Assembly (NCBI GenBank): GCA_963756895.1
Contig: CAVWPI010000010.1
Coordinates: 16,649-80,648, forward strand
Length of the DNA stretch: 64,000 bases
Origin: an uncultured Actinomycetes bacterium
GTDB taxonomy: Bacteria; Actinomycetota; Acidimicrobiia; IMCC26256; DASPTH01
Direction: 5' to 3'
Part shown: one piece after another, positions 47,457 to 57,266 of the stretch
How positions within the stretch are numbered: the stretch's first letter is position 1
Layout of the letters: each line of letters opens with the position of its first letter
Translations under genes and position numbers: made by a program
The notes under the pieces: generated by a model
What the model saw: the letters and a program-made list of their open reading frames with translations, nothing else
Database searches by the model: none
Told to the model about the DNA's origin: nothing

Positions 47457-47822
47457 CTAGAGCAGTCCCGCCAGCGCGAACCCCGCGGTCGCGGCGACCA
47501 GCCCGAGGCCGACGCTCCCCAGCGCGTTCACGAGCGCCGCGCGCGTGGCCCCCGACTCGAAGAGGCCGAACGTGTCGTAGGAGAAGGACGAGAACGTGGT
47601 GTACGCGCCGATGAAGCCGGTGCCGATCACCGTGCGGACGTCGGGGTCGAGGCCCTGGTAGGTCACCAGCCCGACGAGTGCCCCGAGAGCGAACGCCCCC
47701 GACACGTTCACCACCACGGTGCCGTACGGGAACCGCGATGCGGTCCGCGACTGCACCAGCTCGTGGACGCCGTAACGCCCGAGCGCGCCCAACGCTCCCG
47801 CCAGCGCGACGAGACCGAGCAT
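47457..47822 (-). CDS. crcB: fluoride channel CrcB/FluC (copy 2)
   Basis: 121 aa. GTVVVNVSGAFALG and GFIGAYTTFSSF motifs. ATG overlaps the upstream stop by 1 nt. Confidence 0.85.
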   Translation of the reverse strand: MLGLVALAGALGALGRYGVHELVQSRTASRFPYGTVVVNVSGAFALGALVGLVTYQGLDPDVRTVIGTGFIGAYTTFSSFSYDTFGLFESGATRAALVNALGSVGLGLVAATAGFALAGLL

Positions 47823-48229
47823 CAGTCGTCCTGCTCCGGGTCGAACGCGGGTGTGGGCCGGCACGTCACCGCGCGCGCGACCTGGACGCCGAGCGCCACC
47901 GCGACGAACCCCGCGACCAGGCTGACCACGAGGTACAGCGCAGCCGTGCCCGTGCGGCCGTCACGCGTGAGCAGCACGCTCTCCACCATCCAGGTCGAGA
48001 ACGTGGTGAGGCCGCCACAGAAGCCGACGGCCGCGAACGCGCGGAGTGCGCCGGTGGATCCGCGCGTCTCGGCCAGCACCACGATCACGACCCCGAGGAG
48101 GAGCGAGCCCACCACGTTGGCGGTGAGCGTCGCCCACGGGAACCGGCCGCTCTGCACCGGCTCCGCGAGTGCGAGCTCGTACCGCGCCACCGTACCCAGC
48201 GCACCTCCGACCGCCACCGCGACGAGCAT
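47822..48229 (-). CDS. crcB: fluoride channel CrcB/FluC (copy 1)
   Basis: ATLTANVVGSLLLG and GFCGGLTTFSTW motifs. The start may instead be GTG 48247. Confidence 0.8.
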   Translation of the reverse strand: MLVAVAVGGALGTVARYELALAEPVQSGRFPWATLTANVVGSLLLGVVIVVLAETRGSTGALRAFAAVGFCGGLTTFSTWMVESVLLTRDGRTGTAALYLVVSLVAGFVAVALGVQVARAVTCRPTPAFDPEQDD

Positions 48230-48263
48230 CCAGGTGCGGTGCTCCACGGTCACGCCCGCGACG

Positions 48264-49835
48264 CTACGCGCCCAGGATCTCGTACTCGCTGATCTCGCGT
48301 GCTTCTTCCTCGTCGTCGTGCGACGGGAACTCGTCGTGACCGTGGGCCGGGAGGAACCGCCAGGCGATGATCGCGGCGAAGACGATGATCGCGGCGGCGA
48401 TCGGATACGTGATCCGCATCGCGTCGACGAACGCGTCGCGGGACAGCTGCACCAGCGCGTCACCCTGCTTCGCCGGCAGCTGCGCGGCCAGGTCGAGAGC
48501 ACGACCCACCGAATCGTGGAGCGCCGCTCTCGACGCGGTGGTGAGGTTGGCAGCCTTGTCGGCGTAGTGGTGATAGGCGGCAAGGAACACGCTGCCGATG
48601 ATGGCGACGCCCAGCGCGCCGCCGGTCTGGCGCGTGGTGTCGTTGATCGCCGAACCGACCCCGGCCCGGCTCGGCGGCAGCGACCCCATGATCGATTCGG
48701 TGGCGGGCGCCGAGGTGAGCCCCAGTCCGACGCCGAAGAGGAAGCGCACTGCGCACCCGCCGACGAACGACGACATGATCATGTCGGACGCGTAGCAGAG
48801 CATCGCGAGCGCGGCGACGAGCAAACCCAGCACGACGACCCACTTGGTTCCCCACCGGCGCACGAGACGAGGAGCGTTCGGCGACACCACCATCATGGCG
48901 ATGGCGACGGGCATGGCGAGGAGGCCGGCCTCGAGCGGAGAGTACCCGAGCACGAACTGGAAGTACTGGATGAGGAGGAACACCGAGCCGTAGAGCGCGA
49001 ACGACGTGAGGGTGAGCACACTGGACGCGGCGGAGAACCGCGGATTGCGGAACACGCGCACGTCGATCATCGGCTCCTTGGCCCGCATCTCCCACAGCGC
49101 GAACACGCCGAGGAGCGCCAACCCCGCGAAGAACGACGCCACGACCTCCGGGGCGGTCCAACCCTTGTCGGGCGCCTGGATGATCGAGTACAGCAGCGCC
49201 ACCAGCGTGAGGACGGAGAGCAGCGCGCCGACCGGATCGAGGGGGCGGTTGTCGGGGTCGCGCGACGACGGGATGTAGAAGTAGCCGAGCACGAGGGCCA
49301 ACGCGCAGATGGGCACGTTCACGAAGAAGACCGAGCCCCAGTAGAAGTGCTCGACCAGGATCCCCCCGAGCATCGGACCGAGCGCGACGCCGATCCCCGA
49401 GACCCCCGCCCAGACCCCGATGGCCTTGGCTCGTTCGCGCCCCGTGAACGTGTTGGTGAGGATCGACAGCGTGGTCGGGAAGATGAACGCGGCGCCGATG
49501 CCCATGAGCCCACGCGCGAAGATGAGCATCTCGGGCGAGTTCGCCAGCGACGCGAGCCCGGAGAACCCGCCGAACAGGAGCAGGCCGAACGTCAGGGCGC
49601 CCTTGCGGCCGTATTTGTCGCCCAGCGCGCCGGCGGTGAGCAGCAAGCTCGCGAACACGATGACGTACGAGTCGATGATCCACTGGAGATCGGAGCCGCT
49701 GGCGCCGAGGTCGCGCACGATCGTGGGCAACGCGACGTTGAGGATCGAATTGTCGATCGTGATGATGACGAGCGACATGCAGAGGACGGCCAGCGTGTAC
49801 CAACGACGTTCGTAGGCCTTCTCCGCGCTGAGCAT
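48264..49835 (-). CDS. MFS transporter, 14-TMS DHA2 (EmrB/QacA) type
   Basis: LGDKYGRKG (motif A region), 14 predicted TM segments, ATG 49835. Divergent from a TetR gene. Confidence 0.85.
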   Translation of the reverse strand: MLSAEKAYERRWYTLAVLCMSLVIITIDNSILNVALPTIVRDLGASGSDLQWIIDSYVIVFASLLLTAGALGDKYGRKGALTFGLLLFGGFSGLASLANSPEMLIFARGLMGIGAAFIFPTTLSILTNTFTGRERAKAIGVWAGVSGIGVALGPMLGGILVEHFYWGSVFFVNVPICALALVLGYFYIPSSRDPDNRPLDPVGALLSVLTLVALLYSIIQAPDKGWTAPEVVASFFAGLALLGVFALWEMRAKEPMIDVRVFRNPRFSAASSVLTLTSFALYGSVFLLIQYFQFVLGYSPLEAGLLAMPVAIAMMVVSPNAPRLVRRWGTKWVVVLGLLVAALAMLCYASDMIMSSFVGGCAVRFLFGVGLGLTSAPATESIMGSLPPSRAGVGSAINDTTRQTGGALGVAIIGSVFLAAYHHYADKAANLTTASRAALHDSVGRALDLAAQLPAKQGDALVQLSRDAFVDAMRITYPIAAAIIVFAAIIAWRFLPAHGHDEFPSHDDEEEAREISEYEILGA

Positions 49836-49913: not shown

Positions 49914-50499
49914 GTGGCAAACCGCGATCCCGAGGCCACGAAGGCGAAGATCCTCGCGGCGGCGGTGCGCGAGTTCTCCGCCAAGGGCATCTCCGGCGCC
50001 CGCGTCGACGCCATCGCGACCCGGGCGGGCGTCAACAAGCGGATGCTCTACTACTACTTCGAGTCGAAGGAGGGGCTGTTCCGGGAGATCCTCCGCCGAC
50101 GGCTCGCCGAAGGCGCGGCGAAGCTGCAGGCGAGCAACGTGGCCGATCCCGACCGGCTCGCGGAGCGCACCGCACGCCTCCCCGGTCAACGCGAGTACAC
50201 GCGCCTCACCATGTGGGAGGCGCTCGAGACCAATCCCGACCGTCCCGTCAACGAGGACCTGCGGCGCGGCGCTCTACGACGACTGGGTCGAGGCCGTGCG
50301 CGAGGAGCAGCGCGCCGGCAACGTCCCCGACGATCTCGACGCCGCCCAACTCGTGCTCAGCGAGGTGTGCCTCACCATGGGCCCGTTCCTGCTCCCCCAG
50401 CTCACGCAGCTCGTCACCGGGAAGTCGGTGAAGGACCCCGAGTTCCTGGCCGAGCGTGATGCGTTCCTGCGCGCGCTCGGGAAACGCCTCGCGTCCTGA
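49914..50499 (+). pseudogene. TetR-family regulator with one extra base at about 50268
   Basis: The N-terminal HTH (KILAAAVREFSAKGISGARVDAIATRAGVNKRMLYYYFESKEGLF) is in the frame of ORF 47763. The C-terminal ALYDDWVEAVREEQRAGNVPDD...LRALGKRLAS* is in the frame of ORF 50296..50499. Confidence 0.75.
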
Positions 50500-50520
50500 A
50501 GGAGCTCCGACCTCGCCGAA

Positions 50521-51525
50521 TCAGACTTCGGCGGTGTCGGCGTCGGCCGCGCCTTCGAGCAGGGATCCCGGCGTGGGACCGCCCACCTGCTTACGGAAGG
50601 AACGCAACGTGTAGCCGGTGAGCACCGCCGCGCCGACCGCCCGGGCCGTCGCCGAACGCGGCAAGCCCAACATCGGTGCCAGTTCGCCGAAGTACTCCCC
50701 CGGGCCGGCCTTGTGCAGCAGTTCCTCGGTGTCGTCGTCGCGCTCGCGCAGGAGCTCGATCTCACCCTCGTCGATCATGTACACGAGATCACCGTGATCG
50801 CCTTCGCGGAACAGCACCTCACCCGCCGCGAGCTCGACGCGCTCCGGGGGACGGTCGGTCGTGGCGGCGCGCGGCGTGAGGTTCACGATCTGGTCGGCGA
50901 GTGGCACGAGGCGGTCGTCGTGGGTGGCGACCACGACCAGTCGGCCCGAGTCGGCGAGGTTGCGCAACAGTCGGATCACGCCTTCGACCTGGAGGTAGTC
51001 GAGGTGGGCAGTCGGTTCGTCGGCGAGGAGCACCGGCGGGTCGTGCGCGAGGCCTCGTGCGATGGCGACCCGCTGCTGCTGACCACCCGACATGTCACCG
51101 GGGAGGTGCTGCGCCCGATCGGCGAGGTCGACGGTCGCGAGCAGCTCCTCGGCCCGCGCGCGCGCCTTGGCCTTGCTCCACTTGGCGGCCCGCAAGGGCA
51201 CCTGGACGTTCTCCGAGGCGGTCAACGCCGGCAGCAGGTTGAACGCCTGGAACACGACGCCGACGGTGTGCCGGCGGTACTGGGTGAGCGCGCTGCCGGA
51301 GAGCCCGACCACTTCGGTGTCGACGACGGTCACGCTGCCCGACGCGGGCGTGAGGAGCCCGGCAATCACCGACAGCAGCGTGGTCTTCCCGCAGCCGCTC
51401 GCGCCGAGCAACAGCACGAGTTGGCCCTCGCCGGCTTCGAGCGAGAGGTTCGAGATCGGGCGCACGACGTAGCCGCCGCTCGAGTACTCGATGGTCAGGT
51501 CCTCGATGCTGAGCACGACTCTCCT
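50521..51525 (-). CDS. ABC transporter ATP-binding protein (MacB/LolD type) fused to a C-terminal cyclic-nucleotide-binding (CAP effector) domain
   Basis: GTG 51525 is preceded by GGAGGAG. Walker A GASGCGKTT, signature MSGGQQQRVAIA, Walker B VLLADEPT. The C-terminal 90 aa read GEVLFREGDHGDLVYMIDEGEIELL...GPGEYFGELAPMLGLPRSATARA. Confidence 0.85.
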   Translation of the reverse strand, partial: RRVVLSIEDLTIEYSSGGYVVRPISNLSLEAGEGQLVLLLGASGCGKTTLLSVIAGLLTPASGSVTVVDTEVVGLSGSALTQYRRHTVGVVFQAFNLLPALTASENVQVPLRAAKWSKAKARARAEELLATVDLADRAQHLPGDMSGGQQQRVAIARGLAHDPPVLLADEPTAHLDYLQVEGVIRLLRNLADSGRLVVVATHDDRLVPLADQIVNLTPRAATTDRPPERVELAAGEVLFREGDHGDLVYMIDEGEIELLRERDDDTEELLHKAGPGEYFGELAPMLGLPRSATARAVGAAVLTGYTLRSFRKQVGGPTPGSLLEGAADADTAEV

Positions 51526-51544
51526 CCGAAGATGCGGCCGGGGA

Positions 51545-52564
51545 TCAGCCGAAGGCCAGTGCCGGGTCGACACCCACCGCGCGCCGCAAGCCGACCAGGC
51601 TCGACGCGACCCCCGCGATCGCCGCGATCACCGGGAGCGCGATGTACGTACCGGTGGAGATCTCGGTGTTCATGGGCACGAAGCCCTTGATGAGCAGCGT
51701 GAGCAGCGCGGCGACCGCCGCGGATGCCACCGAGACGATGACGGCCTGGGTGACGAGGCCCGAGAAGATCGACCGACCCTGCACGCCGATTGCCTTCATC
51801 ACCGCAAAGTCGCGGGTCTGCTCGAGCACGGTCATGTACACGATCGATCCGATGATCCCCACGGCGATGAGCCAGAGGAGCACCCGGAGGAAGTCGATGG
51901 TGCCGGTCGCCTGCTTCAACGGGCGCCCGAGGTCGGCTTCGGCCTGCGAGTTGGTCAGTGCTCTGAACCCGTCGGGCACCGAGCTGGGCAGGCGCTCGGT
52001 GAGCAGTGCGGACGCGAGGGGCTGGCCAGCGTACGTCAGGTCTTGCGCGTCCTCGAGGGTGACGACCGCAGTCGGCGAACCGGCGAAGATGGTGCGCCCG
52101 GAGTAGGTGCCGACGACCTTGAAGGCTTTGCCGAGGTCGAGCGTGTCGCCGACGTCGAAACCGAGGCTCTCGTCGACGACCACCTCGCCCGAGCGCTTCG
52201 GATCATGACCACTCGTCGCCTTGGGGCCGAGCCCGCCCGGTTCGACGCCGAACACCATCACGTCCTTGCTGCCGTGCGGGACGCGGGTCATGGCCATCGC
52301 CACCACCTCACCGCCACCCTGCACGTCGCTCTTCACCGCGGCAGGCGCGAAGACCTTCGAGTTGCTGAACGGTCCGGCTGCGCTCGTCGGTACGACCCAG
52401 CCGCCCGCACCGAACGAGTCGACGCTGCGCGTGATCTCGGACTTGAAGCCACCGCTCACACCCGAGAGGATCAGCGCGATGGCGAACACCAGGCTGGTGG
52501 CGAGGATGGCGATGATGAACCGCCGGCGCCGGAACTGCAGGTCCCGCCATCCGATGTAGAACAC
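51545..52564 (-). CDS. FtsX/MacB-type ABC transporter permease
   Basis: GTG 52564 lies 7 nt after the upstream stop and is preceded by GGGGAGTAGAGG. One TM helix, an extracytoplasmic domain of about 210 aa, then three C-terminal TM helices (FAVMKAIG region). Confidence 0.8.
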   Translation of the reverse strand: MFYIGWRDLQFRRRRFIIAILATSLVFAIALILSGVSGGFKSEITRSVDSFGAGGWVVPTSAAGPFSNSKVFAPAAVKSDVQGGGEVVAMAMTRVPHGSKDVMVFGVEPGGLGPKATSGHDPKRSGEVVVDESLGFDVGDTLDLGKAFKVVGTYSGRTIFAGSPTAVVTLEDAQDLTYAGQPLASALLTERLPSSVPDGFRALTNSQAEADLGRPLKQATGTIDFLRVLLWLIAVGIIGSIVYMTVLEQTRDFAVMKAIGVQGRSIFSGLVTQAVIVSVASAAVAALLTLLIKGFVPMNTEISTGTYIALPVIAAIAGVASSLVGLRRAVGVDPALAFG

Positions 52565-52571
52565 GCAGCCT

Positions 52572-55500
52572 CTACTCCCCTGCTGCCTGGTCGAGCTCGG
52601 CCCGGACTGCTTCGACACGGCGCTCGATCGACACGCCTTCACATCGTGCGGCGAACGCCAGCGCCTCGGCGAGGTCGAGCTCGGCACGCTGACGGTGGCC
52701 GGCGTGGTTGCGACGCGTGAGCATCTCGGCGCGCTCCACATGGGTGCGACCCGCCCAGTACACCGCGCCGAACCGCTCGCAGCGTTCGAGCGCGAGCTCG
52801 AACGCTGCTTCGGCCTCATCGTCCCGACCGAGCAATCCGAGGAGGCGAGCCACCGGCCGTGCCACCGGATGCGGCGCGATCGCGTGAATGAACGTCATGC
52901 GGTCGGCGTACGGAGACATCAACTCCAGGAGCGTGGCCGCTCCCTCGCGGTGCCCGAGGCCGACGGCAACGTCGGCGAGATCCTCCAGCGACTGCAGACG
53001 AGACAGCATCTCGTAGTTGAATCCCGATGCCCGCTCGCGCTCGAAACGCTCGGCTGCTCCCGCGAGGTCACCAGTCTCGAAGAGCAGGAGGATCACGGCG
53101 ACGCGCAGCGGTTCGATTGTGGGCATGGACTCGGCGGCCTCGATGAAGAAGTCGGCGAGCTCGTCGAAGCGTCCCTCGATCATCCTGAGGCTGAAGAGCT
53201 GTCCGCCGTAGCTGCCGATCCCCGGCCCGATGCCCGCTGATGTGGCCAGCTCGAGCGCCATGTCTACGAACGACTCCGCCGCGGCCAAGTCACCTTCGAG
53301 CGTCGCGAACGCAGCGTGGTCGATAAGGACCTGCCATCGCTGGTACGGGAGGCCGAGCGCATCGGCGCGCTCCACCACATCGGTGAATGCCTCGCGGCTG
53401 GCGTCGGCGTCGGCGCGCATGACGAGCACCTCCAGGTGCTGGTACGCGGCGACAAAACCTTGCAAACGGTCGCCGACCCGATCGGCGAGCTCGACCGCCG
53501 TGGTTGCAGCTTCAGCGCGTCGGCCCAGGTCGTCGTCGTCGAGGCACACGGTCCACACGGCGTTCAGGACCTCGAGGAGCGTTCGGTCGTCCTGAAGGGT
53601 CCTTGCGAGGTCGACCGCACGCTGAGCGGTGTCGGTGCGCTCGACCAGATCGCGAGCGTCGAGCTCCAACGACAGGAATGCGAGGAGCCGGGCGGCAGCA
53701 CTGCTGTCGGGATCGACCCGTTCGAGCGCTGCTCTCAGCGTGGCGATCCGCTCGACATCGAAGTCGTAGACCTGCGTCGTTCGAGCGAGTGCAAAGGCGA
53801 CACGGACGAGACGCTCATCGTCGTCGGCTCCGCGAGCCAGCTCCGCCGCCTCGACCAGGGTCTCGCGTTCCTCAGCCAGACCGGCCAGCTGCTGCGCGGT
53901 GCCGAGACCGATCAGGAGGTCACACCGCACGAGGTCCTCACCTGCGAGCTGACGTTCCTGGAGCTCGAGTGCCTGCGAGAACCAGCGCACTGCGTCGAGG
54001 GGCGCGAGTGCGTTCAGCGCCGCGTCGCCGGCGAGCCGCGCGTATTCGATGGCCTTGGCTGCATCTGCGGGTTGCGTCGCCACCAGCCAGTGGTGCGCAA
54101 GCTCGGCGACGGGCGGCGCGTGCTCGCCGGTCATGGTCTCGAGCGCCTGCGCGATGCGCTGGTGCAGGCGTTGGCGACGGGTCGCGCTGAGGTCCTGGTA
54201 GAGGGTGTGTTCGATCAGCGCGTGCTCGAAACGGAAGCGACCCGGGAGCTCCCCGACCTCGGTCACCAGCGCGGCGGTGACCGCCTGCTCGAGCACGTCG
54301 AGCACGTCGTCCTCGCGTTGGTCGGCGATCGCGCTGAGAACCTCGAGATCGAACGTCCGGCCGATCACTGCGGCCATCGAGAGGAGCTTCGCCACGTCGT
54401 CGCCCAGACGATCGACACGCCGCATGACGACGTCGCGCACGCTCCCGGGCAGGCTCATGTCGTCGAGGTCGATGCTCAACGAGTACTGCCCGTTGTCGTC
54501 GAAGACGATGGCGCCCGTCTCGTAGAGGTGGCGGAGGAGCTCACCGGTGAAGAACGGGTTCCCGCCCGTCTCGCGGTACAGCGCGTGCGCGAGCAGCACG
54601 CCGTCCTCCGGGAGCTCGTAGCCCGCGGCACCCTCCACGAGCGCGAACAGCTCCTGGTCGTCGAGGCCGCGGATCGCGAGCCGGGTGACCACCGGCTCGC
54701 GCCGGAGATCGGCGAGCACCGGCGTGAGCGCGTGATCGCGCGTCAGGTCGGTGTCGCGATAGGTGCCCACGACCAGGAGCGGCGGTGGGTTCGCAGTCGA
54801 GATCGTGTGCCGGAGCACCTGGAGGCTGGCGGCGTCGGCCCACTGCAGGTCGTCGAGCACCAGCACGACCACTTGGTCGCGGGCGGCGTCGCGCAGCAGC
54901 GCGCACGTCGCTTCGAGCAGGACGTAGCGGTCACCGTCGGCGTCGCCCGATCCTCCGTCGGGCTCCGCGGTCGGCACGCGGCGCGCCAGCGCAGGCACCA
55001 GTCGCGACAGCGCGGCACCGTGCTGCGCGACGTGGTCGTCAAGCAGCTGCTGGGGCGCGTGCTCGACCAGGTGCGTCAGCGCGTCGATCCAGGGCCGGTA
55101 CGACACTCCCATGCCCTCCGAGCACTGCCCGAACAGCACAGTTGCCCCGTCGGCATGGAGGGTGCGCGCCACTTGCGCGGCGAGCGTCGTCTTGCCGATC
55201 CCCGGCTCCCCCTCGAGCAGCACGACCTCGGGGTGGCCCTCGGTGCGCGCCCGCTTCGCCGCGTCGAGCGCGGTCGTCAGCTCGTCGCTGCGACCGAAGA
55301 AACCGAAGAGCCCCTCGGTCGCGGTCCCGACGAGGCGCGACGGGATCGGGATGTCGCCGGCGACCGCTTCCGGCTCCCACCGGACCTCGACCGCGGGCAT
55401 CGGGTCGGGGATCCCCTTGAGCTCGAGCTCGCCGACCGACGCGTACTCGTGGGTGCTGTGGCGACCCACCATCGCCCGCAGGAGCTCGGTGGTGAGGATC

Positions 55501-55883
55501 TGACCGCCGTTGGCGCGATCGCACAGGCGGGCGGCTTCGACGACGCAGTCGCCGAAGTAGTCACCCGCTTCCTCGACGGCCTCGCCCATCGAGATGCCGA
55601 CCCGCAGCTCGATGGGTTCCTCGCCCCGGCGGTTGTGGCGCTCGATGCCCTGCTGGATCGCCGCCGCGCACGACAGCGCCCGGCTGGGACCCGTGAACAT
55701 GAGCATGATGCCGTCACCGGTGGTCTTCACCTCGATGCCGCCGGTCGCCTCGGCTGCGCCCCGGAGGATGGCGAAATGGGTCTGGCGGAGGCTCTCGGCG
55801 GCGTCCGGACCGATGCGGGAGGCCAGCGCGGTCGATCCCACGAGGTCGGTGAAGAGGAACGTGGCCGTGATCGGCGTGCTCAT
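52572..55883 (-). CDS. class III adenylate/guanylate-cyclase domain, STAND/AAA P-loop NTPase and TPR-like repeat protein (1103 aa)
   Basis: FLFTDLVGSTAL and KTTGDGIMLMF cyclase motifs, Walker A LLEGEPGIGKTTLA, Walker B-like VVLVLDDLQWAD, and a long helical-repeat C-terminus without an HTH. Confidence 0.85.
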   Translation of the reverse strand: MSTPITATFLFTDLVGSTALASRIGPDAAESLRQTHFAILRGAAEATGGIEVKTTGDGIMLMFTGPSRALSCAAAIQQGIERHNRRGEEPIELRVGISMGEAVEEAGDYFGDCVVEAARLCDRANGGQILTTELLRAMVGRHSTHEYASVGELELKGIPDPMPAVEVRWEPEAVAGDIPIPSRLVGTATEGLFGFFGRSDELTTALDAAKRARTEGHPEVVLLEGEPGIGKTTLAAQVARTLHADGATVLFGQCSEGMGVSYRPWIDALTHLVEHAPQQLLDDHVAQHGAALSRLVPALARRVPTAEPDGGSGDADGDRYVLLEATCALLRDAARDQVVVLVLDDLQWADAASLQVLRHTISTANPPPLLVVGTYRDTDLTRDHALTPVLADLRREPVVTRLAIRGLDDQELFALVEGAAGYELPEDGVLLAHALYRETGGNPFFTGELLRHLYETGAIVFDDNGQYSLSIDLDDMSLPGSVRDVVMRRVDRLGDDVAKLLSMAAVIGRTFDLEVLSAIADQREDDVLDVLEQAVTAALVTEVGELPGRFRFEHALIEHTLYQDLSATRRQRLHQRIAQALETMTGEHAPPVAELAHHWLVATQPADAAKAIEYARLAGDAALNALAPLDAVRWFSQALELQERQLAGEDLVRCDLLIGLGTAQQLAGLAEERETLVEAAELARGADDDERLVRVAFALARTTQVYDFDVERIATLRAALERVDPDSSAAARLLAFLSLELDARDLVERTDTAQRAVDLARTLQDDRTLLEVLNAVWTVCLDDDDLGRRAEAATTAVELADRVGDRLQGFVAAYQHLEVLVMRADADASREAFTDVVERADALGLPYQRWQVLIDHAAFATLEGDLAAAESFVDMALELATSAGIGPGIGSYGGQLFSLRMIEGRFDELADFFIEAAESMPTIEPLRVAVILLLFETGDLAGAAERFERERASGFNYEMLSRLQSLEDLADVAVGLGHREGAATLLELMSPYADRMTFIHAIAPHPVARPVARLLGLLGRDDEAEAAFELALERCERFGAVYWAGRTHVERAEMLTRRNHAGHRQRAELDLAEALAFAARCEGVSIERRVEAVRAELDQAAGE

Positions 55884-55961
55884 CCCCGCCCCGCTCGGCT
55901 GGTGTGCATTCGCCCTCGCCCCGCGCGCGCCGCTGAGCGATCGCCCAGCGCGTTCCGCACC

Positions 55962-55990
55962 TTTCTACCGCAAGCGCACGGTGTAGACAA
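55962..55990 (-). promoter_or_regulatory. candidate promoter of the cyclase operon (TTGTCT-17 nt-TAGAAA)
   Basis: Hexamers read on the minus strand, about 79 nt upstream of ATG 55883. Based on pattern only. Confidence 0.25.
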
Positions 55991-56066
55991 GTAACCACTC
56001 AGCGCGCGGTAAACTGCCCCGGTCGACCGATGGGGCCCGTTTTGCGAAAGTGGGCGCAAATGGGGC

Positions 56067-57266
56067 CTAGAGCGCGGCCTTCTCCAGGATGTGGATGCCG
56101 CACGACGAGCCGAGGCCGATGACGTGGGCCATGCCCACCTTTGCGCCCTCGATCTGGCGGTCACCCGCCTCACCCCGCAGCTGCGTGGTGACCTCGAACA
56201 CACCGGCCGCGCCGGTCATGCCGATCGGGTGGCCTTTCGAGAGCAGGCCACCGGACACGTTGACCGGCGTGGTGCCGTCGCGCCACGGCGCACGCTTGTC
56301 GATGAACTCGCCCGCACCGCCGGGCTCGCAGAGGCGCAGGTTGTCGTAGTGGATGAGCTCGGCGGTGGCGAAGCAGTCGTGCAGCTCCACCAGGTCGAGG
56401 TCTTGCGGACCGACGCCGGCGAGCTCGTAGGCCTTGTCGGCCGCGTTGCGCGTGAGCGTGTTGACGTCGGGCTGCGACTCGCCGCCCTCGCTCCACGGGT
56501 CGCTGGTGAGCACCGAGGCGCTCACCTTCACCGCGCGCTTCTGCTGCTCGAGCGACAGGGTCTTGAGCTTCGACTCCGATACGAGCACGATCGCCGCGGC
56601 ACCGTCACCGGTGGGGCAGCACATCGGCAGCGTGTTGGGATACGAGATCACGCGGGCGTCCATGATCTCTTCGAGCGTGAACACCTTGTTGTACTGCGCA
56701 AGCGGGTTCAGTGCCGAGTGCTCGTGGTTCTTCTGCGCGACCTTGGCGAACTGCTCGAAACCGACGCCGTCGTTCTTGTACGCGTACTCCATTCCGGCCT
56801 GGCCGAAGACCGCGGGCATGGTGCCGGAGCCGAGCCAGCCGTCGACCGGCATGACGCCGCCGAAGCGGCCCTCGGGCTCGAACTTGTTGGCGCCGCCCCG
56901 CGCCGAGTTCCCGGCGAGGAGGCCCATCTTGCCCATCTGTTCCGCGCCGATGGCGAGCCCGAAGTCGGCGTTGCCGGCCTGGATCTCGAGCAGTGCGGTG
57001 CGCACCGCGGTGGCGCCGGTCGCGCACACGTTCACGACGTTGTAGATCGGGATGCCGGTCTGACCGATCTGCTTCGCGACCGACTGCCCGATGCCGCCCA
57101 TGTTGAACATGCTCCCGGCGGCGAGCACCTCGATGTCGAAGATGCTCACGCCCGCATCGTCGAGGGCGTTGAACGTCGCCTCCGCGGCAAGGTCGATCAC
57201 GTCCTTGTCGGGGTAGCGACTGATCTTGGTCATCGAGGCGCCGAGCACCCAGACGGATTCACCCAT
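56067..57266 (-). CDS. SCP-x/lipid-transfer-type thiolase
   Basis: VCATGATAV (Cys nucleophile region), CCPTGDGAAA, GHPIGMTGA. Paired with an upstream DUF35 gene. Confidence 0.85.
   Translation of the reverse strand: MGESVWVLGASMTKISRYPDKDVIDLAAEATFNALDDAGVSIFDIEVLAAGSMFNMGGIGQSVAKQIGQTGIPIYNVVNVCATGATAVRTALLEIQAGNADFGLAIGAEQMGKMGLLAGNSARGGANKFEPEGRFGGVMPVDGWLGSGTMPAVFGQAGMEYAYKNDGVGFEQFAKVAQKNHEHSALNPLAQYNKVFTLEEIMDARVISYPNTLPMCCPTGDGAAAIVLVSESKLKTLSLEQQKRAVKVSASVLTSDPWSEGGESQPDVNTLTRNAADKAYELAGVGPQDLDLVELHDCFATAELIHYDNLRLCEPGGAGEFIDKRAPWRDGTTPVNVSGGLLSKGHPIGMTGAAGVFEVTTQLRGEAGDRQIEGAKVGMAHVIGLGSSCGIHILEKAAL

Follow-up and report, generated by a model that had tools for sequence, protein, structure and literature searches.

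The 64,000-nucleotide stretch of DNA considered here, the window, belongs to contig CAVWPI010000010.1 of an uncultured soil bacterium of the Acidimicrobiia. Its G+C content is about 70%. On the minus strand, three co-directional open reading frames (ORFs), ordered ORF1, ORF2, ORF3, follow one another with gaps of 7 and 19 nucleotides. The first codes for a class III cyclase fused to a STAND NTPase and to TPR-like repeats; the two others code for the permease and the ATPase of an ABC transporter, and the ATPase ends in a domain predicted to bind cyclic nucleotide monophosphates (cNMPs). The original prediction, made from the sequence of the window, saw in this arrangement a private second-messenger circuit, hard-wired to a transporter. 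The feature is real and its annotation accurate; the interpretation is partly supported.

Layout of the locus

The three genes are the following:

52572..55883, minus strand: ORF1, probable class III adenylyl cyclase with STAND NTPase and TPR-like solenoid, 1103 residues (Pfam, AlphaFold model, Foldseek)
51545..52564, minus strand: ORF2, FtsX/MacB-type (type VII) permease, 339 residues, GTG start (Pfam FtsX, match to 7w78_B, hydropathy)
50521..51525, minus strand: ORF3, MacB/LolD-type ABC ATPase with C-terminal cNMP-binding domain, 334 residues, GTG start (Pfam, model)

Coordinates, gaps and all four motifs quoted in the original prediction are as it gave them. Within the 64 kb of the window ORF1 is the sole cyclase, and ORF3 has the sole cNMP domain. 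The G+C content at third codon positions (0.86–0.89 in ORF1–ORF3) supports the coding status of the three frames. At the first junction the sequence reads ...GAG TAG aggctgc GTG..., and at the second ...GGC TGA tccccggccgcatcttcggaggagagtc GTG..., with Shine–Dalgarno-like purine runs before the starts of ORF2 (AGAGG) and ORF3 (GGAGGAG). A longer form of ORF2 (ATG at 52819, 424 residues) was rejected: homologous permeases align from residue 1–6 of the 339-residue form. ATPase homologues begin within a few residues of the 334-residue form of ORF3, and these alignments support the short start of each gene.

It is likely that the three genes form an operon, as had been predicted. The gaps between them are tiny, no terminator was found, and a convergent TetR-family gene marks the 3′ limit of the unit. 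A scan of positions 50000–56500 for consensus promoters and terminators found none, including any sigma-70 consensus before ORF1, and a search for CRP sites (TGTGA-N6-TCACA, at most 2 mismatches) gave fewer matches than chance and none in the region upstream of ORF1. Two features delimit the unit:

55884..56066, minus strand: intergenic region upstream of ORF1, 183 nucleotides, candidate promoter of the unit (alignments; promoter role presumed)
49914..50496, plus strand: TetR-family gene, frameshifted near 50255–50269, tail-to-tail with ORF3 (tblastn with the TetR protein of the related contig L083, giving two pieces in different frames)

The 183-nucleotide region is partly conserved among relatives; in one of them, L002, it is retained directly ahead of the FtsX gene after deletion of ORF1. 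As for the TetR gene, it is a pseudogene or the product of an assembly error in the window, and its homologue in L083 is intact.

Just 3′ of the stop codon of the thiolase gene that lies upstream, relatives have a GC-rich hairpin of at least 14 base pairs (L083:5869–5907, z −5.9; L002:8806–8837, z −6.6). It is degraded in the window (about 56000–56040, z −0.4), so that the 5′ boundary of the unit cannot be fixed from it. The hairpin is possibly a terminator or an operator, and its loss could permit read-through into ORF1.

The permease and its ATPase

The FtsX/MacB type predicted for ORF2 is borne out. Pfam places FtsX at residues 228–332 (E 3e-9), and four hydrophobic helices are found (about residues 16–38, 224–246, 268–293 and 305–325), the first being followed by an extracytoplasmic loop of about 185 residues. 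ORF2 has what defines a type VII (MacB/FtsX-type) permease: four helices, an extracytoplasmic domain between the first two and a C-terminal FtsX domain. Among solved structures the HrtB-like permease 7w78_B comes closest, matched over its full length with weak similarity (E 7e-10, 42 bits); MacB follows. MacB_PCD was not detected in ORF2 itself (E ≤ 0.01), and that family (PF12704) is recorded in the orthologous permeases of contigs L087 and L088 and of two JGI contigs.

ORF3 combines ABC_tran (residues 25–173, E 2e-34) with cNMP_binding (residues 230–312, E 1e-18), fused about 10 residues past the ATPase domain. Its best NCBIfam matches are DevA, FtsE, LolD and MacB, all below their equivalog cut-offs. 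In the model (pLDDT 90.5, pTM 0.82) the nearest folds according to Foldseek are the nucleotide-binding domains (NBDs) of YbbA, MacB, LolD and HrtA (TM-scores to the targets about 0.85–0.88). Every top match is confined to an NBD of about 215 columns, and the cNMP domain is covered by none. ORF3, encoded 19 nucleotides from the permease gene, belongs by these matches to the MacB/LolD/FtsE/HrtA subfamily.

50590..50838, minus strand: cNMP-binding domain of ORF3, residues 230–312, with the phosphate-binding cassette FGELAPMLGLPRSATARA at residues 279–296 (nucleotides 50638–50691) (Pfam, alignment to the cyclic nucleotide-binding (CNB) domain A of PKA RI-alpha)

A CAP-effector domain fused to a MacB/LolD-type ATPase is what had been predicted, at 50584..50844, together with an intact phosphate-binding cassette. 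Both agree with these data. The domain aligns best to domain A of PKA RI-alpha, with a cassette FGELA...PRSATA that displays the Gly-Glu and Arg-(Ser/Thr/Ala)-Ala elements. G280, E281, R290 and A292 of the cassette are invariant in all 81 members of the ORF3 family, as are Walker A, Q-loop, signature, Walker B and H-loop.

Among characterized systems, the haem exporter HrtBA (PDB 7w78), MacB, LolCDE and YbbAP have a permease of similar size and topology to ORF2, and an ATPase domain with the fold found in ORF3. These transporters extrude their substrates from the membrane or from the periplasmic side by mechanotransmission. They differ from the present pair in that their fold matches to ORF3 end with the NBD, and the permeases are but weakly similar in sequence.

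ABC ATPases with a cNMP domain, such as Rv2564, have been annotated since about 2000. The original prediction named Rv0072/Rv0073 as its precedent, and Rv0073 presumably has such a domain. Both Rv2563/64 and Rv0072/73 of M. tuberculosis are described as MacB-like systems, made of a MacB-like four-helix permease and an ABC ATPase, with uncertain function (PMC7761784), and it is Rv2564 that is listed with a PF00027 cNMP domain (PMC4886424). In this form the literature bears the precedent out. Like Rv2563/64 and Rv0072/73, ORF2–ORF3 associate an FtsX-type permease with an ABC ATPase (‘GlnQ-like’ in M. tuberculosis), and the pair has the ABC_tran, the C-terminal cNMP_binding domain and the FtsX gene directly upstream that characterize the Rv2563/64 type. 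Homologues from Mycobacterium metagenome-assembled genomes and isolates (not the H37Rv proteins themselves) are 55–58% identical to ORF3. The difference lies in the neighbourhood: none of the mycobacterial loci sampled has a class III cyclase next to the pair, whereas in the window a cyclase-STAND-TPR gene lies 7 nucleotides upstream of the pair. Rv2561 has been predicted to be a cyclase-like partner of Rv2564 (PMC4886424); this lead was dropped, the upstream neighbours in ten Mycobacterium loci being devoid of DUF2652. Searching the literature for functional work on cNMP-domain ABC ATPases, ligand response or substrate, we found none in the library searched. By sequence and fold, ORF2 and ORF3 belong with the type VII ABC exporters (MacB/HrtBA-like, working by mechanotransmission), those of the Rv2563/64 kind, and are typical of their family.

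The cyclase-STAND-TPR protein

The cyclase and the P-loop STAND/AAA module predicted in ORF1 are recovered by Pfam as Guanylate_cyc (residues 7–157, E 6e-12) and AAA_16 (residues 195–372, E 1e-29), with matches to AAA_22 and nSTAND too. The AlphaFold model, built on a 60-sequence alignment (pLDDT 87), displays an alpha/beta cyclase domain (residues 1–170), a P-loop NTPase and helical and winged-helix parts up to about residue 565, followed by some 28 paired helices that make helix-hairpin repeats over residues 567–1101.

55413..55865, minus strand: cyclase catalytic domain, residues 7–157, with D13/D57, K53/D108, R119, and V115 at the canonical Asn position (alignment to Ma1120)
54189..55301, minus strand: STAND nucleotide-binding/oligomerisation module, residues 195–565, with Walker A GEPGIGKTT at residue 225, Walker B LVLDD at residue 341, and helical and winged-helix parts (Pfam, motifs, model)
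52581..54185, minus strand: TPR-like helical-hairpin solenoid, residues 567–1101, presumed sensor (model; TPR_12 matches in homologues; this exact stretch is missing in L001)

The TPR-like repeats had been estimated at about 650 residues. The repeats are indeed in the model, but they extend over about 535 residues, and Pfam finds no TPR in ORF1 itself, the TPR_12 matches being those of homologues. Whole-chain comparison with Foldseek gives as best match the STAND-TPR protein 6mfv, then Apaf-1, and the succession of P-loop NTPase, helical and winged-helix parts and C-terminal repeats is that of a STAND NTPase with a TPR sensor (MalT/AfsR-like). AfsR/SARP-type regulators have the same AAA_16 and TPR chassis, with DNA binding (Trans_reg_C and BTAD), not a cyclase, as their output.

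No helix-turn-helix (HTH) domain is found in ORF1 by Pfam or NCBIfam, and helical repeats run to the C-terminus of the model, in keeping with the predicted lack of a DNA-binding end. The mycobacterial proteins Rv0386, Rv1358 and Rv2488c have the same N-terminal class III cyclase, STAND-type P-loop NTPase and helical repeats; they differ by their LuxR HTH, and by a substrate pair which in ORF1 is the canonical Lys/Asp. The prediction had taken the missing LuxR domain for something unusual. It is ordinary, since the family, with its 7311 scored matches, is made almost wholly of proteins of about 1100 residues without HTH, the commonest form in databases. ORF1 is a typical member of this HTH-less family.

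The closest solved catalytic domains are those of Rv1900c and Ma1120 of M. avium (E 1e-23; TM-score about 0.9, root-mean-square deviation about 2 Å). Rv1900c is fused to a lipase-like domain and Ma1120 stands alone, unlike ORF1 with its STAND-TPR extension. Alignment to Ma1120 identifies the metal-binding D13 and D57, the adenine-specifying K53 and D108 (K101 and D157 in Ma1120) and R119. Each of the five recurs in at least 116 of 118 homologues of ORF1, in which the position of the canonical Asn is always Val or Ile. Ma1120 does not have this Asn either: with Ala164 in its place it is an active adenylyl cyclase, which loses activity when Asn is introduced (PMC4215837). V115 in ORF1 therefore does not imply inactivity, and the substrate residues suggest that ORF1 is probably an ATP-using (adenylyl) cyclase.

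The transporter pair in other genomes

A genome scan with ORF3 gave 80 species-level loci (55–69% identity) from Acidimicrobiia, Mycobacterium and other Actinomycetota, in which genes were called with a six-frame codon log-odds caller. In essentially all of them, Mycobacterium included, the gene immediately before that of the ABC-cNMP ATPase is FtsX, so that the pair appears as a self-contained two-gene module. Its other immediate neighbours are very diverse (93–95 Pfam families). Guanylate_cyc is tied for the commonest upstream family, and AAA_16 is the commonest downstream. Besides L015, which has the layout of the window, the loci with an adjacent class III cyclase, with two found by extra look-up, are these:

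L026, L036: cyclase-STAND-TPR neighbour, downstream, co-directional
L079: cyclase-STAND-TPR neighbour, divergent
L003, L004, L005: CHASE2-cyclase neighbour, divergent
L014: tandem cyclase domains, divergent
L088:8030–11010 (extra look-up): FHA-Guanylate_cyc gene, convergent with the ABC-cNMP gene, beside a Ser/Thr protein kinase gene
L169 (extra look-up): further CHASE2-cyclase neighbour

Two further contigs looked up in the same way (JGI) have no cyclase beside the pair.

Cyclases occupy 7 of 154 adjacent slots and 8 of 887 slots farther away (odds ratio 5.2, Fisher p 0.003), and their number falls with distance from the pair, from 7 to 2, 2, 2, 1 and then nearly zero. The surveyed loci are related, however, and the statistic overstates their independence. 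The adjacent cyclases are of five architectures (STAND-TPR, CHASE2, FHA, tandem, other), in differing orientations, and the types are spread over different branches of the ATPase tree, a pattern in favour of several separate adjacency events. Taken together, the distribution suggests a non-random link between cyclase and pair, recurrent but in the minority. The neighbourhood survey that the original prediction had proposed thus finds what it looked for, in unrelated arrangements, and finds it rarely.

In L088 the FHA-cyclase and the adjoining kinase suggest that phosphorylation feeds into a cyclase that neighbours the same transporter. An Acidimicrobiaceae clade (L023, L024, L042, L058, L060, L063, L077; about 11000–14700, plus strand) has, directly downstream of the pair, an AfsR/SARP-type regulator with Trans_reg_C, BTAD, AAA_16 and TPR, then one or two small cNMP-binding genes. 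In at least two contigs (JGI sample 3300047160), and possibly in L007:3655–8127, the pair adjoins the gene of the glutamate synthase large subunit (gltB). Rv2564 was long ago annotated as ‘GlnQ’, which makes this neighbourhood curious, though it may be due to chance.

Gain and loss of the cyclase gene

Five other contigs are syntenic with the flanks of the window, at about 80–89% DNA identity. The FtsX and ABC-cNMP pair is intact in all six genomes, and the fate of ORF1 differs:

Window: ORF1 intact
L083: ORF1 intact, protein 77% identical; same three-gene cluster
L015: ORF1 intact; same layout as the window
L001: lacks what corresponds to window 52573–54204, exactly the TPR half of ORF1
L002: lacks 52606–55947; what is kept is about 55 nucleotides at the 3′ end of ORF1 and, now directly before FtsX, the conserved upstream region
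L087: lacks 52571–56067, with no remnant of ORF1

Trees built from either flank place L087 as the outgroup and L002 in one group with the ORF1-carrying L083 and L015. This leaves either a single gain of ORF1 in the ingroup or its loss from L087, followed by at least two degradations inside the ingroup. Three long-read assemblies (L001, L015 and L004; ENA/Microflora Danica) contain many genes broken by frameshift, probably through errors of assembly, which makes their gene-level identities to the window too low; the large deletions of ORF1 cannot be explained in this way. From these comparisons the cyclase appears optional, present in part of a shallow clade and already deleted twice within it, and the pair is the conserved, autonomous unit.

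The cyclase family seen from its own side

Homologues of ORF1 that share 63% and 60% identity with it occur on their own. A metagenome scan with an alignment as query retrieved 80 loci of the family, where ORF1 used by itself had retrieved no relatives. None of the 80 has the FtsX/ABC-cNMP pair. In five of them the cyclase is next to another kind of cNMP-domain gene, namely two acyltransferase-like-CNB proteins, two CRP/FNR-like regulators and one small CNB protein:

L100:5881–7005 and L119:255–1361: protein of about 370 residues, acyltransferase-like N-terminus and C-terminal CNB domain
L142:9430–10116 and L148, about 9400–10043: CRP/FNR-like regulators
L103:3978–4385: 136-residue CNB protein

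Three paralogs of the ORF1 family (P0168, P0171, P0174) are recorded on a single 24,770-nucleotide contig, a case of local paralog expansion.

A proposed second-messenger control of the exporter

We lean, with slightly better than even confidence, towards a type VII exporter modulated by cyclic AMP (cAMP), to which a cyclase was added recently and facultatively. A class III cyclase works only when dimeric. A ligand or a protein recognized by the TPR sensor of ORF1 would trigger nucleotide-dependent oligomerisation, bring cyclase domains together and start cAMP synthesis. The nucleotide would then bind the cNMP domain of ORF3 and alter the closure of the two ATPase domains on each other, changing ATP turnover and tuning, post-translationally, the extrusion of an envelope or outer-leaflet substrate. 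Such control would resemble that exerted by the C-terminal regulatory domains of MetN, ModC and MalK. Lying 7 nucleotides upstream of the pair, ORF1 probably shares its promoter, and producer and receiver would for that reason be made together. The coupling would be facultative: the transporter pair could listen to any source of cAMP in the cell, and three of the six syntenic genomes have lost ORF1 or half of it.

A number of observations weigh against this reading. The transition-state Asn-Arg pair is incomplete in ORF1, R119 being present and V115 standing in place of Asn. The family of ORF1 is large and rich in paralogs, several of them on some contigs, which raises the odds of chance adjacency. 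About 90% of the 80 transporter loci are without an adjacent cyclase, and the enrichment of cyclases, when counted as separate events, is only borderline. The ORF1-like neighbours in L026 and L036, finally, share only 42.5% identity with ORF1, the level of paralogs.

The most serious rival is neutral adjacency, where ORF1, a scattered paralog, would have landed between the thiolase and FtsX genes, tied to the transporter only through the global cAMP pool that both share. The abundance of paralogs keeps chance in play, and so do the isolated homologues at 60–63% identity, the 80 ORF1-family loci without the pair, the loss of ORF1 from close relatives with no effect on the pair, and the variety of families found next to the latter. 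Chance accounts poorly, however, for cyclases concentrated in the slots nearest the pair, in five architectures and on separate branches, for the tied rank of Guanylate_cyc among upstream families, for the 7-nucleotide gap, which implies co-transcription, and for the association of ORF1-family cyclases with other cNMP receivers. We consider neutral adjacency unlikely on balance.

The obligate, insulated circuit of the original prediction, with ORF1 as the dedicated source of the ligand gating this transporter, fares less well and we judge it improbable. The tight spacing of the three genes, the cyclase and cNMP domain each single in 64 kb, and the conservation of the cluster in L083 and L015 speak in its favour. 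Of the five closest relatives, three have lost ORF1 wholly or by half while retaining the pair, through at least two independent deletions inside a clade with no more than 18% DNA divergence, which hardly agrees with a hard-wired arrangement. As a private circuit it fails too: most related genomes, near relatives among them, lack the adjacency, a point on which the prediction had agreed to be judged. Moreover, cAMP is freely diffusible, and no evident scaffold or interaction domain joins ORF1 to ORF2 or ORF3. A weaker idea survives, and is the best reading of the locus: producer and receiver would be functionally matched and, in this lineage, co-expressed.

Slightly more improbable again is that ORF1 is a dead pseudo-cyclase, acting only as a STAND scaffold or regulator, or that the cNMP-like domain of ORF3 serves dimerisation or binds another ligand. 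Val or Ile replaces the canonical Asn throughout the ORF1 family, and some CAP-family domains do bind other ligands. Yet the family keeps both metal-binding Asp, the Lys/Asp substrate pair and the Arg almost without exception, the closest solved relative, Ma1120, is active with Ala at the same position (PMC4215837), and the cassette Glu and Arg, which contact the ribose and phosphate of cAMP, are invariant across the ORF3 family. A Pycsar-like anti-phage system, in which the STAND-TPR part would sense a phage protein (STAND-TPR proteins are common phage sensors) and the nucleotide would drive envelope damage or remodelling by the ABC/FtsX pair, shares the logic of a cyclase with a cNMP-domain effector and draws on a weak PADLOC match of PycC to ORF1 (26 bits, residues 5–80), but it is very improbable and we reject it, since PADLOC matches only generic P-loop or cyclase homology and none of its models matches ORF2, the substrate residues are the adenine-type Lys/Asp pair and not those of a pyrimidine cyclase, the pair is widespread without any cyclase, and its neighbours are housekeeping or transport genes (thiolase, MFS, CrcB, Kdp) with no defence island.

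Returning to the cAMP-modulated exporter with its facultative cyclase, what is new is modest. It lies in the tight operonic junction and in the recruitment, beside the same transporter, of cyclases with diverse sensors, a variant arrangement of known, uncharacterised families. A bolder proposal, which we put forward tentatively and would sooner doubt than assert, is that the operon is the first tractable case in which a second messenger gates a bacterial ABC transporter directly: cAMP from a co-transcribed, STAND-switched cyclase, whose TPR part would sense an intracellular cue, would act on the ATPase of a type VII exporter, and the CHASE2, FHA and STAND-TPR cyclases, recruited repeatedly and independently, would provide one output with different inputs in each lineage. 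This compact association of producer and receiver, together with a natural series where the cyclase is intact, truncated or deleted, makes a test bed for direct cAMP gating of a type VII exporter, and the wider survey points to the transporter as an output shared by a variety of sensory cyclases joined to it. If gating is true, a post-translational second-messenger layer lies over envelope export in Actinomycetota, mycobacteria included; if not, the cluster is one more neighbourhood of two large gene families.

Neighbouring genes

Upstream of the unit are the thiolase gene, a gene for a ChsH2-type OB-fold protein, two ABC exporters and a MarR gene. Downstream are an MFS gene, CrcB genes, a DUF4118 gene and KdpABC. 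The start of the MFS gene is probably at 49835 rather than 50189, as the longer ORF runs through the antisense of the TetR gene. The CrcB-like (fluoride channel) genes are two small tandem ORFs, 47822–48253 and 47457–47864, both on the minus strand (Pfam was applied to 47457–47864 only). Two CRCB genes are likewise found in L087 and in other relatives.

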